A stretch of 64,000 nt of DNA from Acidimicrobiia bacterium (GTDB lineage Bacteria > Actinomycetota > Acidimicrobiia > Spongiisociales > ZC4RG35): contig OZ253443.1 of the NCBI GenBank assembly GCA_965261135.1, forward strand, positions 2,416,841-2,480,840, in the 5' to 3' direction. This document shows positions 2,408 to 50,276 of the stretch, piece after piece (the first letter of the stretch is position 1; every line of letters begins with the position of its first letter). Under the pieces are notes generated by a model. It made no database searches, was not told the DNA's origin, and was given only the letters and a program-made list of their open reading frames with translations. The position numbers and the translations under genes were made by a program.

Positions 2408-4083
2408 GATCCAACCAGTTGCACCACCGGCCCCGGGCCCGGAAGGGTGGCGGGCATCGGTTTGAACTGGCAGCCTTCGACGAAGATATCAAAGAAATCC
2501 GGAGTGGTCTCCAGTTCGATGTGGGTGACCCACTTGGTCACTTCCTCCGCCCGGCGTCGTTTCTCCTCTGACAGCAAGAGCGCGCGTGCGCCCTCGACCG
2601 CCGCGTTGCCCACCTTGACCACCCGCTCGGCCGCCACCGGCGCCATGAGCCCGATCTCGATGGCGGCGCCCATGTCGAGATAAGTGGCAAACCCTCCCGC
2701 CAGGTACAGCCGCTCGATCTCCGCCGGCTGCACCCCCGCGGTGCGCATCACGATCAACTGTCCGCAGTGGTTGGCGGCCTTGGCTTGGGCCAGGTTGCTG
2801 ATATCCTCACGCGAGAACGTGATCCCCCGATCAGGCACCACGTCCATGGAGAAACGCTTGCGATCATTGGCGAACGCGCCCCGCTCGGTCATGAGCCCAT
2901 GTCGGCGGAGGTCAGCCAGCAGGTCAACCAGCCCCGAGCCGCATATCCCCACCGCAGGCGCCCCACCGATCGTCTCATAGGAGGTGGCGGCGCCGTTCGC
3001 TGACAGCCGGATCGACTCGATGGCGCCGTCGTAGGCTCGCATGCCGTAGCTGACCAGACCACCCTCGAAAGCCGGGCCCGCCGGGCAGGAAGCCGCCCAC
3101 ATGCGGCCCTGATGGCTGAGAATCACCTCGGTGTTGGTACCCATGTCCACCAGCATCTCGGTCCGTCCCCCCTCCCCGAGCCGTACTGTCTCGAGGCACG
3201 CCACCGCGTCGGCGCCCACATGGCTGGCCACCAGCGGTATTCCGTACACCTTGGCATTGCGATTTGCCCGCAGGCCCAGCGTTCGACTGTCGGTCAGGAG
3301 AGCCATGTGGGGACGGCGCCCGGCCAGGTAGTCGTGTTCGGTCAACGACTTGTATGGTTTCTGGCCGATGCTCTGCACGCTCAACCCGAACAGGATGTCC
3401 CGCATGGTGGAGTTGGCGGCGACCACGATCTCGTAGACGTGAGGAGGGCGTCGGCCGGCACGGCGAGCCAGATCCCGTACGCCCTGGTTGATAGCTGCCA
3501 CTGCCGCATTCTGGAGTTCACCACCAACTCCGGGGCGGGCTTCATAGGAGATGCGGTTCATCACGTCGCTGCCGCCGAACCCCTGGGGGTTCTCGAAACC
3601 GGCCACCCCCAGGCTGATTCCCGTCTCGAGGTCCACCAACTCCACAACCACCGTGGTGGTGCCGAGATCCACGGCCAAGCCGCATATCGCGCCCCGGTAG
3701 CGGTCGAGGACCGCATCCCCGTATCTGACCTCGTCGCCGACCCGGGTAACTGCCGGATGGAAATCGCCGGACGTCCGCGCTCGGAGGAGACTACTTTCGA
3801 GAATCCTCGGGCGTCTCCGCAACGGCGCGAATCTGATCGGGAGGTCATCGCGCACCACCCGGGCCTGACACGCCAGGCGGAAATCACCTCGGAGGAAGCG
3901 CTCGGTTTCGGTTCGCTCCGTCAGCCCTCCCATTCCCTCGGTTATCTCCACCACGCATTCATGACACTCCCCCTTGCGCAAGCACGATGTGGGAACCTCG
4001 ACCTCCAGCTTGTCAGCGTGGTCGAAGATGGTTTCACCGACTACGACGGGGCGCGTCTCGGCGCCATGGGAGACGGTGCTCAC
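2404..4083 (-). CDS. RACE-type reductive activator of corrinoid enzymes (2Fe-2S ferredoxin + ASKHA ATPase)
   Basis: N-terminal plant-type ferredoxin Cys motif CLRKGECHEC followed by a long ASKHA/DUF4445-like body. Start re-assigned to GTG at 4081-4083 (VSTVSHG...). The track ORF extends to 4272 only because no stop intervenes. Confidence 0.65.
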   Translation of the reverse strand: MSTVSHGAETRPVVVGETIFDHADKLEVEVPTSCLRKGECHECVVEITEGMGGLTERTETERFLRGDFRLACQARVVRDDLPIRFAPLRRRPRILESSLLRARTSGDFHPAVTRVGDEVRYGDAVLDRYRGAICGLAVDLGTTTVVVELVDLETGISLGVAGFENPQGFGGSDVMNRISYEARPGVGGELQNAAVAAINQGVRDLARRAGRRPPHVYEIVVAANSTMRDILFGLSVQSIGQKPYKSLTEHDYLAGRRPHMALLTDSRTLGLRANRNAKVYGIPLVASHVGADAVACLETVRLGEGGRTEMLVDMGTNTEVILSHQGRMWAASCPAGPAFEGGLVSYGMRAYDGAIESIRLSANGAATSYETIGGAPAVGICGSGLVDLLADLRRHGLMTERGAFANDRKRFSMDVVPDRGITFSREDISNLAQAKAANHCGQLIVMRTAGVQPAEIERLYLAGGFATYLDMGAAIEIGLMAPVAAERVVKVGNAAVEGARALLLSEEKRRRAEEVTKWVTHIELETTPDFFDIFVEGCQFKPMPATLPGPGPVVQLVGS

Positions 4084-46589: not shown

Positions 46590-46692
46590 GGGTTAGTGGC
46601 GATTCGCAGCATTCTTGCAACCTCATCATAGAGAACGCCTCTACTCTTCTCAGCGAAAGGGCTCATCTGCCAACAGGTGTCGAGGGGAGTTG

Positions 46693-47079
46693 TTACCAAA
46701 GGACGCCGGTGCCGAAATGCCTGAAGGCGGCGTCTCTGGTTACCAGGGTCAGCAATTCCATGTCAGCCTGGGCGGCCAGCATCCGATCGAAGGGATCACG
46801 GTGATCCACTGAATAGGTCCCAGCTCTCAGACAATGCAGGTAGTTGACTGCGAGATGTTGAAACCCATCCGCTTGTACCAAGTCGTGGAAGCGGCGCACG
46901 GCGTCGGGAGCATGGTCAAGGCGCCCCAGGCGCCGCAGCGTTGCGATCTCCCAGGCACTGGCCGCGCTCACGTACACCTCGGATGCCGAATCGGCGATAG
47001 CGCTCCTGGCTCGTATCGAAAGACTGGAATTGTCGGTCCACCACCACAACAGCACATGGGTATCGAGCAGCAGCCGCAT
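46693..47079 (-). CDS. vapC: PIN-domain ribonuclease toxin, VapC family
   Basis: MRLLLDTHVLLWW... with the conserved acidic residues of the PIN fold. 128 aa. Directly downstream of the antitoxin remnant. Confidence 0.75.
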   Translation of the reverse strand: MRLLLDTHVLLWWWTDNSSLSIRARSAIADSASEVYVSAASAWEIATLRRLGRLDHAPDAVRRFHDLVQADGFQHLAVNYLHCLRAGTYSVDHRDPFDRMLAAQADMELLTLVTRDAAFRHFGTGVLW

Positions 47080-47267
47080 TATCTCCGTTCCCAGGCGTCG
47101 AGCTCGGTCTGTGGCAGAGGATCGAGTATCTCGGGACCGACGAACTGGTCCGAGAGCCGTCCGGGGCGGCGGGCGGCCTCGGGTGGGGGAAGGGGCCCCA
47201 GCACCGCGTAGGGCTTGCCTGCTTTGGCGAGGATGATCTCCTCCCCGGCATGAGCGCGATCCAACAA
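47079..47267 (-). pseudogene. 3' portion (62 codons) of a Phd/YefM-type antitoxin gene, severed from its 5' end by an IS insertion
   Basis: Reads (L)DRAHAGEEIILAKAGKPYAVLGP..., the conserved core of Phd/YefM antitoxins. It lacks the N-terminal beta-strand. The only in-frame start is the TTG at 47265-47267, inside the target-site duplication. Confidence 0.55.
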
Positions 47268-47271
47268 TTTG

Positions 47272-48618
47272 AGGCTTCGCGATATGTTGGGATTCGGGTA
47301 GGGAGGGGGTCCTTGTTTAGGGGTTGAGGCCTCGCTGGAATAGGTGGTGTAAATCTGCCTATCCAGGAGGCCTCAATGAGTTTCGATGTTATGAGGGTGC
47401 GGTTGCACCTGCGTGGTGTTGGTGTGACCGGTGTGGTGGTGGACACCCCCGCAGAGTTGGTGGTGGAGGTGATGTCCACCAGGAAGTTGTCATCGTGTCC
47501 GTTTTGTGGGCGTTCTTGCCGGCGGGTTCATGACCGTCGCCGGAGGGAGATCCGTGATCTGGAGCACGGCGGCCGCCCGACGGTGCTGTTATGGACCCAG
47601 CGGCGGTTCGTGTGCAACCATTGTGGAAAGCGTCATATGGAAACCCATCCCCAGTTCGAGGGTGGTCTCACTCGCCGGTTGGCGCGCAGGCTGGTCCAAG
47701 ACGCTCAGGTGATGCCGATCAGTGCGGTGTCCCGCCGCCACCGTGTGGGGTGGCATCTGGTCATGGGACTGCTCTGTGACTGGTCGGGACTGGTCCAAGA
47801 TCATCGTCGCAAACAGTCCTGTCGGGTGTTGTTGATTGATGAGACCTCGATCCGCAAACGGCATCGTTATGTGACCGTGATCCTCAACGGTGACACCGGA
47901 GAGCTGTTGGACATGATCCAAGGACGCTCCAAAGCTGCTCTGAGCAGGTTTTTCATCGCGCAAGGACCCCGATGGTGCCAGAACGTGAATACCGTGGTCA
48001 CCGACGGTTCCCACTCCTACCGCGCAGCTATTCATCGTTATCTTCCCCGAGCCCGTCACGTCCTGGACCGCTTCCACGCCGCCCGATGGTTCACCCAAGG
48101 ACTGACCCTGGTACGCCGGGAACTGCAACGCCGCCAACCCCCAGGAGTGAAACCGGCCTACGAACCGGACCTGTTCAGAGCCCGGTTTTGTCTGCTGAAA
48201 CGAAACGACCATCTCACCCCTGCAGACCAACGACGTCTCCAGCGTTTGTTCGCTGCTCATCCCCGTCTCAAAGTGGCCTGGGACGCCTTACAGGAGCTCT
48301 ACGGCCTGTACGAGGCCAACGATCTCCAAGGCGCCCTGGAAGCCCTCGACCGTTTCGGGGACCTCTACAACAGCGGACAGATTCCCGAGTACCACGACAC
48401 CGTGGACACCATCCTCAACTGGGCCGACGAAATCCTGAACTGGCACCACAGCCGCCGTTCCAATGGACCCCTCGAAGGCATCAACAACCTAATCCAAACC
48501 CTCCGCAGAACCGCCCACGGCTTCACAAACCCCCAAAACTACGCCGCCCGAGGACTCCTCCTAACATGAACCCCACCACCAACCAGCCAGACCACAATCC
48601 CACGAATTCGCGAAGGGC
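47272..48618 (+). mobile_element. ISL3-family insertion sequence (~1.35 kb) with a 10-bp target-site duplication
   Basis: Direct repeat CAACAATTTG at 47262-47271 and 48619-48628. Imperfect terminal inverted repeats: gaggcttcgcgatatgttggg at the left end, and cccacgaattcgcgaagggcc at the right end in the inverted sense. Single transposase ORF inside. Confidence 0.75.
47376..48569 (+). CDS. ISL3-family transposase
   Basis: N-terminal zinc-finger CPFCG...CNHCG. DDE domain with the characteristic ISL3 C-terminal region (…HHSRRSNGPLEGINNLIQTLRRTAHGF). Confidence 0.8.
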   Translation: MSFDVMRVRLHLRGVGVTGVVVDTPAELVVEVMSTRKLSSCPFCGRSCRRVHDRRRREIRDLEHGGRPTVLLWTQRRFVCNHCGKRHMETHPQFEGGLTRRLARRLVQDAQVMPISAVSRRHRVGWHLVMGLLCDWSGLVQDHRRKQSCRVLLIDETSIRKRHRYVTVILNGDTGELLDMIQGRSKAALSRFFIAQGPRWCQNVNTVVTDGSHSYRAAIHRYLPRARHVLDRFHAARWFTQGLTLVRRELQRRQPPGVKPAYEPDLFRARFCLLKRNDHLTPADQRRLQRLFAAHPRLKVAWDALQELYGLYEANDLQGALEALDRFGDLYNSGQIPEYHDTVDTILNWADEILNWHHSRRSNGPLEGINNLIQTLRRTAHGFTNPQNYAARGLLLT

Positions 48619-48672
48619 CAACAATTTGGACAGATGCGTCTTCGCTTGGTGGACGTTCACGATCGAAGTCAT
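48619..48672 (-). pseudogene. stranded 5' end (18 codons) of the antitoxin gene with its SD
   Basis: Minus strand reads AAGGAGGAGAAAGCC-ATG ACT TCG ATC GTG AAC GTC CAC CAA GCG AAG ACG CAT CTG TCC AAA TTG TTG (MTSIVNVHQAKTHLSKLL). This joins in frame to DRAHAGEE... at 47267 once the IS is removed. Confidence 0.6.
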
Positions 48673-48810
48673 GGCTTTCTCCTCCTCTTAGTCTGCCTGT
48701 GGACTTATCTATAGGTAATATTAGCTAAGTCTATAAACTAAGGTATCTATTCGGGTCCTGCCAAGGGAAGCCCCGCTTCTTCTTGCCTTGGAGGCAGCCG
48801 GGCATATCAC

Positions 48811-48904: not shown

Positions 48905-49912
48905 TCAAAAGCCGTGGTTCGTATCTTGGTCTTGCAGGTCTCCCATGATCTTCTCGATCCGTGGGTCGAATTCTTCTTTGAACTTGGGCAAGAGATCAAG
49001 CATCCACGCTCTAATGTCCTTCTGTTTCGCTGGTGAGTCGGTTATCGAGCCGTCTCTCTTTAATGAGTTGATTTCGGAGAACAGAAAGGGGTTATGTCTC
49101 CGCCAGTCCCACTCCAATGATGGCTCCGCGGTGATGGTTCTTTCAATCTCCTGGCGATCCGCCTCCAAGGCATCGAATATGCATTTGGTCAGATCCTTTT
49201 CGTGGGTCGCAATATGAAGGGTCACCCAGGCAGCCTCTTCAACCCCAAGAGTGACCGTGTACCAAATGCCTTTGTTAACGGGAGAAGGAAAGCCACGATC
49301 CTTATAGCTAAAAATCTGGATAGGTTGCTTTTTGAAAGCGCCTTTCTGGATCAGTTTGTCAACCAAAGGCTTGAAAAACTCTTGGTGGATCAACTTCTCG
49401 ACGGGCAGGTCGGTTGGACGCAGGGTGAGTTCCTTGTTCCAGCCGCCGGGGTAGACCACTTTGCGGAATCTGGGCTCGGGTTGTGAGCCTACCGGGGCCT
49501 TCACAGCTTCGATCTTGACACCGTAGAGCCGGGTCCCATCCGCAGTCCTCTCATTGAGCCAATGCAGAGCTTTAGCATGCTCACGGAGGAATTCGGGCGC
49601 AACCCATATCATCACTTGCGCCCCACGACCCGCCGCGTAGGTGAGCAACTTGCCCAGATGGTCGTGGTCGGTCCACTTCAATTGGTTCTCGATTGCAACC
49701 AAGGTTTCCTGGTCCGAATCGGCTTCTTTCGCCAGGATGTCCAAAGAGAACCGGCCTACTTGTGTTTCCTGGCCGACTAACTCCAACCGGAGCCCGATTT
49801 CCTCCCCCAATAGGTGCAGATTCTTAGCTAGCCATGGGGTGAATTCACGCGCCTCATGCTTCCATATTGTATGGACATCTACCTGCTCGGCGCCCGGTTG
49901 GCTCTCACGCAT
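48905..49912 (-). CDS. hypothetical protein with PD-(D/E)xK nuclease-like N-terminal motifs
   Basis: GRFSLDILAKEADSDQETLVAIENQLKWTDHDHLGKLLTY resembles the D...E-x-K/Q ... (Q/K)xxxY core of restriction-endonuclease-like folds. GC ~50%. Start is the ATG at 49910-49912 (MRESQ...) or the ATG at 49943-49945. Confidence 0.45.
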   Translation of the reverse strand: MRESQPGAEQVDVHTIWKHEAREFTPWLAKNLHLLGEEIGLRLELVGQETQVGRFSLDILAKEADSDQETLVAIENQLKWTDHDHLGKLLTYAAGRGAQVMIWVAPEFLREHAKALHWLNERTADGTRLYGVKIEAVKAPVGSQPEPRFRKVVYPGGWNKELTLRPTDLPVEKLIHQEFFKPLVDKLIQKGAFKKQPIQIFSYKDRGFPSPVNKGIWYTVTLGVEEAAWVTLHIATHEKDLTKCIFDALEADRQEIERTITAEPSLEWDWRRHNPFLFSEINSLKRDGSITDSPAKQKDIRAWMLDLLPKFKEEFDPRIEKIMGDLQDQDTNHGF

Positions 49913-49919
49913 GAGTTCC

Positions 49920-50276
49920 CTATTCCTTCCTGACACCGCTGTCACCGGGTCTGATCACGAAGTCGCGACGGTCCCGATAGAGCAGCGCCCGGTTCAGCAC
50001 ATAGTCGTCAGACTCCAAGTCGATGTCCGGGCACTCCGTCATCGTCCAGTACTTGTAATCACCCAGGAACAGATAGTTTCGCTTCTGGTGGAAGAACCAG
50101 CATTCCACGCCCTCATCTGCGGCGATCCGGGCACAAAACGCAGCTAACAAAGCCTGCTGTCCGTCCCTTTTGATCACCACGTATTCGTGAGGCCAGGAAT
50201 TCCGGTATGTAACCGCCTCCCGCCACGGAGCACTGGATATCAACCCCATAATTTCCACAATTCGCTCTTTCGACAC
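49920..50276 (-). CDS. hypothetical 118-aa protein, partner of the nuclease-like gene
   Basis: GTG at 50274-50276 preceded by AGGAGGA at 5-nt spacing. Only the 3' third of the 362-aa track ORF is plausible. Ends 7 nt before the next start. Confidence 0.4.
   Translation of the reverse strand: MSKERIVEIMGLISSAPWREAVTYRNSWPHEYVVIKRDGQQALLAAFCARIAADEGVECWFFHQKRNYLFLGDYKYWTMTECPDIDLESDDYVLNRALLYRDRRDFVIRPGDSGVRKE

Follow-up and report, generated by a model that had tools for sequence, protein, structure and literature searches.

The window, a 64,000-nt stretch of contig OZ253443.1 of an Acidimicrobiia bacterium (assembly GCA_965261135.1), contains a toxin–antitoxin locus, a VapC module, whose Phd/YefM-type antitoxin gene is split by an ISL3-family insertion sequence. 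The insertion is proven by an uninterrupted (empty-site) allele of the same locus on a metagenome contig, L001. The features of the locus, in window coordinates, and the contig that carries the empty site are as follows:

46693..47079, minus strand: vapC, intact gene of a 128-amino-acid (aa) PIN-domain toxin, its ATG overlapping the antitoxin stop codon (TAATG)
47079..47270, minus strand: 3' part of the split antitoxin gene, with codons 16-78, the stop and the left duplication copy
47263..47270, no strand: target-site duplication, left copy, AACAATTT (written on the plus strand)
47271..48619, plus strand: ISL3-family insertion sequence, 1,349 bp, its ends taken from L002 and L004 (right), L007 (both) and the relative L088; missing in L001
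47271..47294, plus strand: left terminal inverted repeat, GAGGCTTCGCGATATGTTGGGATT, with the same terminus in L007 and L088
47323..47377, plus strand: strong hairpin in the transposase leader, covering the Shine–Dalgarno sequence (SD) and the first bases of the ATG
47376..48569, plus strand: ISL3 transposase gene, 397 aa, the single open reading frame (ORF) of the element, antiparallel to the toxin–antitoxin operon
48596..48619, plus strand: right terminal inverted repeat (reverse complement GGCCCTTCGCGAATTCGTGGGATT)
48620..48627, no strand: target-site duplication, right copy, AACAATTT
48620..48672, minus strand: 5' part of the split antitoxin gene, with codons 1-17 plus two bases of codon 18
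48679..48687, minus strand: antitoxin SD, GAGGAGGAG, read from the sequence
48695..48762, minus strand: AT-rich tract, presumed promoter/operator, 40% GC, now 1.35 kb further from vapC
Contig L001, ENA ERZ25071132: empty-site allele

Removal of 47271-48619 together with one copy of the 8-bp repeat leaves 1,490 nt that occur in L001 without a single change. The flanks to the left and right of the element are 100% identical in the window and L001, and L001 has a single copy of the 8-bp target. Because an empty-site allele exists with identical flanks, we regard the insertion as proven, and because the excised 1,490 nt match L001 exactly, chance is ruled out. The flanks rejoined in silico give an in-frame 78-aa antitoxin ORF, and the 78-aa antitoxin encoded by L001 is identical to the reconstructed protein. 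The original prediction, which had placed an ISL3 element in the Phd/YefM antitoxin gene of a VapC module and had proposed comparing the reconstructed site with empty-site alleles, is thus borne out by the L001 allele and by the family profiles given below; its own excision recipe yields the same 1,490-nt string as the corrected excision and so also matches L001. A further look-up, of public assemblies for an identical VapC protein, gave 13 contigs that carry it. Ten of these are shown, and in all 10 an intact 78-aa antitoxin adjoins vapC within the gene order of the window (DUF4268, antitoxin, vapC, methylmalonyl-CoA mutase).

The literal direct repeat at the element is 11 nt long (CCAACAATTTG, at 47261-71 and 48618-28) and cannot by itself set the boundary, so we took the ends from independent copies. 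In L002 and L004 an element end identical over 43 nt adjoins other DNA (...GAAGGGCC/TTGAAAG, the slash marking the junction), which places the right end at 48619, while the copy in L007, identical to the window element at every one of its 1,349 nt, meets its left flank at GTC/GAGGCTTCG and so places the left end at 47271. Contig L088, supplied by a JGI metagenome scan with the transposase, decided the length of the duplication: it holds a 77.5%-identical relative with the same termini (GAGGCTTCGCG...CGCGAAGGTCC) and a clean 8-bp duplication (ACCTTTGT). On the evidence of these copies the true target-site duplication is the 8 bp AACAATTT, the canonical ISL3 length, and the further three matching bases are coincidence. 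Duplications of 9, 10 or 11 bp were rejected after the same comparison, and with them the 10 bp claimed originally; the element body given as 47272-48618 was correctly located but is one base longer on each side. The 8-bp target covers antitoxin codons 16-18 (AAA TTG TT) and is 87% AT in a window of 61% GC, and the remaining targets that we saw are AT-rich too.

The transposase matches DDE_Tnp_ISL3 PF01610 (207.5 bits, cut-off 23, 3e-61), Zn_ribbon_ISL3 PF14690 (45.2 bits, cut-off 25.5, 1e-11) and the NCBIfam equivalog transpos_ISL3 NF033550 (296.7 bits, cut-off 180), with HTH_Tnp_ISL3 PF13542 at 24.5 bits, slightly under its cut-off of 27.4. The terminal inverted repeats agree at 17 of 24 positions, sharing the first G and differing at the next three outermost positions (GAGG versus GGCC), so that the imperfect repeats and single ISL3-type transposase described from the sequence alone were read correctly. 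The element is found at more than one insertion site (the identical copy elsewhere in L007 and the identical 43-nt end in L002 and L004). Domains, 8-bp duplication, inverted repeats, size and mobility, which are all the family tests that we ran, place the element in the ISL3 family. The JGI scan returned no identical copy, and the nearest relative was 79% identical in protein. Like other elements of the family (ISL3, IS31831, ISPst9, IS1411 and the Enterococcus faecium ISL3 of PMC13216065), it has a single transposase with zinc ribbon, helix-turn-helix and DDE_Tnp_ISL3 domains, a length of ~1.35 kb, imperfect ~24 bp inverted repeats, an 8-bp duplication and AT-rich targets; it differs from them in having a distinct sequence, a distinction drawn from the JGI metagenome comparison (nearest protein 79%). 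The hairpin in the transposase leader has a predicted fold of -39.4 kcal/mol (z -5.3) on the plus strand, in which the SD (GGAGG) and the start-codon region are paired with the upstream arm. It recalls the known device by which some insertion sequences stop translation of read-through transcripts.

The insertion is recent, and the evidence points to a very recent event by an active element, as the original prediction had suggested in one of its three scenarios. This reading is supported by flanks that do not differ from the empty site over 1.5 kb, by the identity of the second copy elsewhere (L007) and by the fact that the insertion allele occurs in no other contig retrieved. Exact-product look-ups of the two ORFs that the insertion creates, a 62-aa remnant and a 49-aa fusion, found neither on record.

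The reconstituted 78-aa antitoxin passes the cut-offs of PhdYeFM_antitox PF02604 (36.6 bits, cut-off 29.8) and TIGR01552 (27.1 bits, cut-off 20.8), in line with the prediction that the flanks would join in frame into a Phd/YefM antitoxin upstream of vapC. The TAATG stop/start overlap is present in the window and in all empty-site contigs, and a Phd-like antitoxin lies directly upstream of vapC in 73 of 80 homologous loci. We conclude that the two genes form a VapBC module, of predicted function, in which VapB has the Phd fold; such pairs are widespread. The module resembles known ones of this kind (Mycobacterium tuberculosis VapB46, 6jqy; VapBC5, 3dbo; P1 Phd) in that the gene of the PIN toxin follows directly, its start codon overlapping the antitoxin stop, and in that the N-terminal ~40 residues of the antitoxin align. 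In a PDB search the aligned residues were 3-43, against the N-terminal domain of VapB46 (6jqy), Phd and 3dbo chain A; the difference from these solved structures lies in the low similarity of the antitoxin (E 7e-4 to 0.04). The insertion cuts this N-terminal domain after residue 18. From what is established for the Phd/YefM fold, residues 3-43 are the dimerisation and DNA-binding domain.

Each fragment of the antitoxin gene keeps part of this architecture. The head, 18 codons encoding MTSIVNVHQAKTHLSKLL at 48672-48619 on the minus strand with its ATG at 48672, keeps the SD and the upstream AT-rich tract and reads into the element as a 49-codon fusion ORF (48523-48672), 31 codons of which are element-encoded. 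(For the SD the original prediction gave AAGGAGGAG, an error of one base; the window has AAGAGGAGGAG.) The tail forms an ORF of 62 codons from TTG 47267 (TTG TTG GAT CGC...), encoding DRAHAGEEIILAKAGKPYAVLGP..., to the stop at 47079, and keeps the C-terminal segment RLSDQFVGPEILDPLPQTELDAWE. In the seven of 80 homologous loci without a Phd-like antitoxin, none of which is disrupted by an insertion sequence, an unrelated N-domain is followed by the same C-terminal F-(E/D)PLP-EL-WE motif. Since the motif is conserved beside unrelated N-domains, we take it to be the toxin-binding module, and the tail could neutralise VapC if it were made.

A separate observation concerns contigs L024, L032, L047, L061, L067 and L075, in which the antitoxins beside the VapC homologues begin with a domain that is not of the Phd type (e.g. 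MLIQKIVKELQDIPE...). Most of these antitoxins keep the C-terminal F-EPLP-EL-WE motif, a case of antitoxin domain swapping.

The toxin gene shows no decay. VapC matches Pfam PIN PF01850 (56.6 bits, cut-off 23.6), and in an alignment of 72 VapC homologues no sequence departs from D6, E44, D95 or D98, and D or E always occupies position 116; the window protein has the full set (D6, E44, D95, D98 and D116). The check for inactivating substitutions at the PIN acidic residues, suggested along with the original prediction, found none. The window VapC does not differ from the protein encoded at loci whose antitoxin is intact, which agrees with the earlier description of a disrupted antitoxin beside an intact toxin ORF. 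Among strains ~4% diverged at the locus, all five nucleotide differences in vapC are synonymous, while the antitoxin has 2-3 amino-acid changes. As the vapC differences are all synonymous, the toxin is under purifying selection in the population. The gene has its own SD (GGAG, 6-9 nt ahead of its ATG). Among the GTDB species representatives scanned there was no close VapC (best match 62% identical), and a PDB sequence search with VapC gave no credible match, just a spurious one to a designed repeat.

Upstream of the antitoxin head, the AT-rich tract contains an inverted repeat, GACTTAGCTA-N10-TAGATAAGTC (48731-48702), around the near-palindrome TAGCTAATATTACCTA, and it is unchanged across five strains. 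It is presumed to be the original promoter/operator. This role, proposed in the original prediction, agrees with the low GC content (40% versus 61% for the window) and with the inverted repeat, but a promoter scan of the tract found no match to the sigma-70 consensus. On the other side of the module, between vapC and the mutase gene, there is a promoter-like site, CTGAGA-17-TATGAT, at 46625-46653 on the minus strand, and the downstream metabolic operon is probably independent of transcription through the toxin–antitoxin locus.

What the insertion does to the module depends on whether vapC is still expressed. The ISL3 element transposed into the AT-rich 8-bp target AACAATTT in the chromosomal vapB and duplicated it; its transposase gene opposes the operon, and the element is therefore in reverse orientation. 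In the course of events that we propose, a transcript from the native promoter would then translate just the 49-codon fusion ORF, cross ~1.25 kb of untranslated antisense element RNA, meet convergent transposase transcription and, ~50 nt before leaving the element, pass a strong hairpin; the same inverted repeat as in the transposase leader folds in minus-strand RNA at -31.7 kcal/mol (z -5.6). The insertion is most likely polar because antisense RNA, convergent transcription and the hairpin all stand before vapC. The toxin gene and the antitoxin tail would no longer, or barely, be expressed, so that the whole module would be knocked out, antitoxin first, and the cell would survive. We consider it probable, if well short of certain, that the reverse-oriented insertion separates vapC from its promoter in this manner and silences the whole module. 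Transposon sequencing in Serratia gives a parallel: insertions in the antitoxins of functional systems were depleted, some antitoxin insertions were tolerated in reverse orientation only, and this tolerance was explained by convergent transcription stopping toxin production (PMC7725324). In Photorhabdus, eroded loci defective in the antitoxin only are rare (8, versus 185 toxin-only and 186 defective in both), and polar effects are among the explanations offered for them (PMC13617665). A polar insertion is absent from the three scenarios of the original prediction (a re-expressed truncated antitoxin, an inactivated toxin, a very recent insertion) and is the simplest outcome.

Several points weigh against silencing of the module. 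A consensus scan of the element found no canonical intrinsic terminator on the minus strand, and the minus-strand hairpin has no U-tract; with neither in place, read-through into vapC from the now unrepressed native promoter is possible, and vapC, having its own SD, could be translated from any such transcript. Among the contigs retrieved the insertion allele was seen in the window only, as might be expected of a transient, deleterious variant.

If vapC is still transcribed, be it through read-through or because a promoter lies at the left end of the element or close to it, the toxin might be neutralised by a truncated antitoxin started at TTG 47267, TTG 47264 or the GTG of codon 38, which would have lost DNA binding and autoregulation and kept the toxin-binding C-terminus. 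The remnant does contain the entire C-terminal motif RLSDQFVGPEILDPLPQTELDAWE, conserved even with the other type of N-domain, and the PDB matches confine the Phd-like DNA-binding fold to residues 3-43. ISL3 elements can, moreover, supply outward promoter elements (PMC13216065). The documented outward -35, however, is at the 3' end (PMC13216065), whereas here the 5' end faces the remnant, and a consensus scan of the left end of the element found no outward sigma-70-like site on the minus strand. There is likewise no purine-rich SD ahead of any of the three candidate starts, and the 62-aa product is not recorded by gene callers anywhere. Re-expression of the truncated antitoxin, as first suggested, thus retains its toxin-binding C-terminus but lacks a recognisable SD and outward promoter-like site, and we regard it as unlikely.

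An alternative that we judge to be similarly unlikely is that the toxin is unopposed and the allele a deleterious, transient one, so recent that just a minority of cells, growth-arrested or being purged, would have it, the assembler having happened to keep their haplotype. Such an allele would fit an insertion present in the window beside 10 of 10 other shown contigs uninterrupted at this VapC, insertion-specific products that are not on record, zero divergence from the empty site and a vapC without compensatory mutation. Assembly into a long contig, on the other hand, requires appreciable coverage, and many chromosomal VapC toxins are bacteriostatic and weakly expressed.

Two further explanations are each quite improbable. 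Another Phd-type VapB elsewhere in the genome could bind VapC and make the cognate antitoxin dispensable; cross-neutralisation of this kind has been proposed for loci defective in the antitoxin only (PMC13617665, PMC7725324), but the 64-kb window contains no paralogue of the antitoxin or of VapC. The insertion might instead have rewired the module. As the DNA-binding N-domain is destroyed, the native promoter would no longer be repressed, and derepressed read-through would either drive vapC together with a truncated, toxin-binding antitoxin or leave VapC free. In the first case an autoregulated toxin–antitoxin pair would have been turned into an unregulated one; in the second, the insertion would be a heritable switch to a slow-growing, tolerant subpopulation. 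This too we hold to be a distant prospect beside silencing.

The remaining two possibilities have next to no weight. Inactivation of the toxin by mutation before or after the insertion, one of the scenarios first raised, found no support at the locus and is contradicted by an undecayed vapC gene (protein identical to that of intact loci, conserved acidic residues D6, E44, D95, D98 and D116 present, strain substitutions all synonymous), the toxicity of VapC itself being predicted from sequence. A repeat mis-join that put the element here is conceivable given that a metagenome assembly is the probable source and that the related contig L007 has an odd tandem/circular repeat structure, but both junctions bear precisely the 8-bp duplication that a genuine ISL3 transposition should leave, and the flanks rejoin to a known allele to the base, whereas a mis-join would create no duplication.

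Insertion of mobile elements into toxin–antitoxin genes is a known route of erosion, and the locus in the window is a further instance that is conceptually nothing new; our literature search turned up no specific example of a vapB gene interrupted by an insertion sequence. The Photorhabdus loci defective in the antitoxin only (PMC13617665) and the reverse insertions in Serratia (PMC7725324) have the same broken antitoxin with an intact toxin ORF, and share with our case mobile-element transcription that would converge on the operon promoter. The case described here differs in being a natural event, with an exact empty-site allele in the same population and in a high-GC organism, and in being known from sequence alone. 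Its value lies in the filled allele and the base-perfect empty allele of one locus in one natural population. The configuration, a broken antitoxin with an intact toxin under purifying selection, is rare (8 of 379 eroded copies in Photorhabdus; PMC13617665). With the allele pair one could ask cleanly, in a natural setting, whether cells become addicted to a chromosomal VapBC module, and also whether survival is explained by orientation-dependent polarity, as the Serratia transposon sequencing suggested (PMC7725324). The locus is in addition a record of an ISL3 element that is active at present and of a candidate hot spot for insertion nearby.

The candidate hot spot is a second ISL3 insertion found in other strains 530 bp upstream, at window position 49146/49147, within the DUF4268 gene (48905-49945, minus strand). 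At this site L002:1-43 and L004:1-43 carry the end that is identical to the window element. L001, at 2615-3290, carries a relative that is 86% identical, at the same nucleotide position and in the same orientation, split by ~2.3 kb with a gene of weak Transposase_20 match. The site is either a strong target hot spot (TTGAAAGA) or a place where one element has replaced another by recombination.

Contig L007 (ENA ERZ25068833, ctg52214_0x_c) is 13.7 kb long, is labelled circular and has an exact 3,498-bp period made up of the element and 2,149 bp of unannotated DNA. Its copy of the element has no matching 8-bp duplication (left flank ACAAAGTC, right flank the palindrome AACATGTT). The contig may have arisen by tandem amplification, may be a circular molecule in which the element is joined to cargo, or may be a product of faulty assembly.

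The neighbourhood beyond the mutase gene is, on comparison of the contigs with the identical VapC, a variable region. Strains with identical VapC diverge directly past the methylmalonyl-CoA mutase gene (below 44955 on the window side), where some have a McrBC restriction system and others, the window among them, encode a B12-binding protein, an AMP-binding enzyme and a P450. Gene calls for the mutase give a length of 532, 544 or 579-584 aa, and a B12-binding domain is fused to it in some and absent in others.

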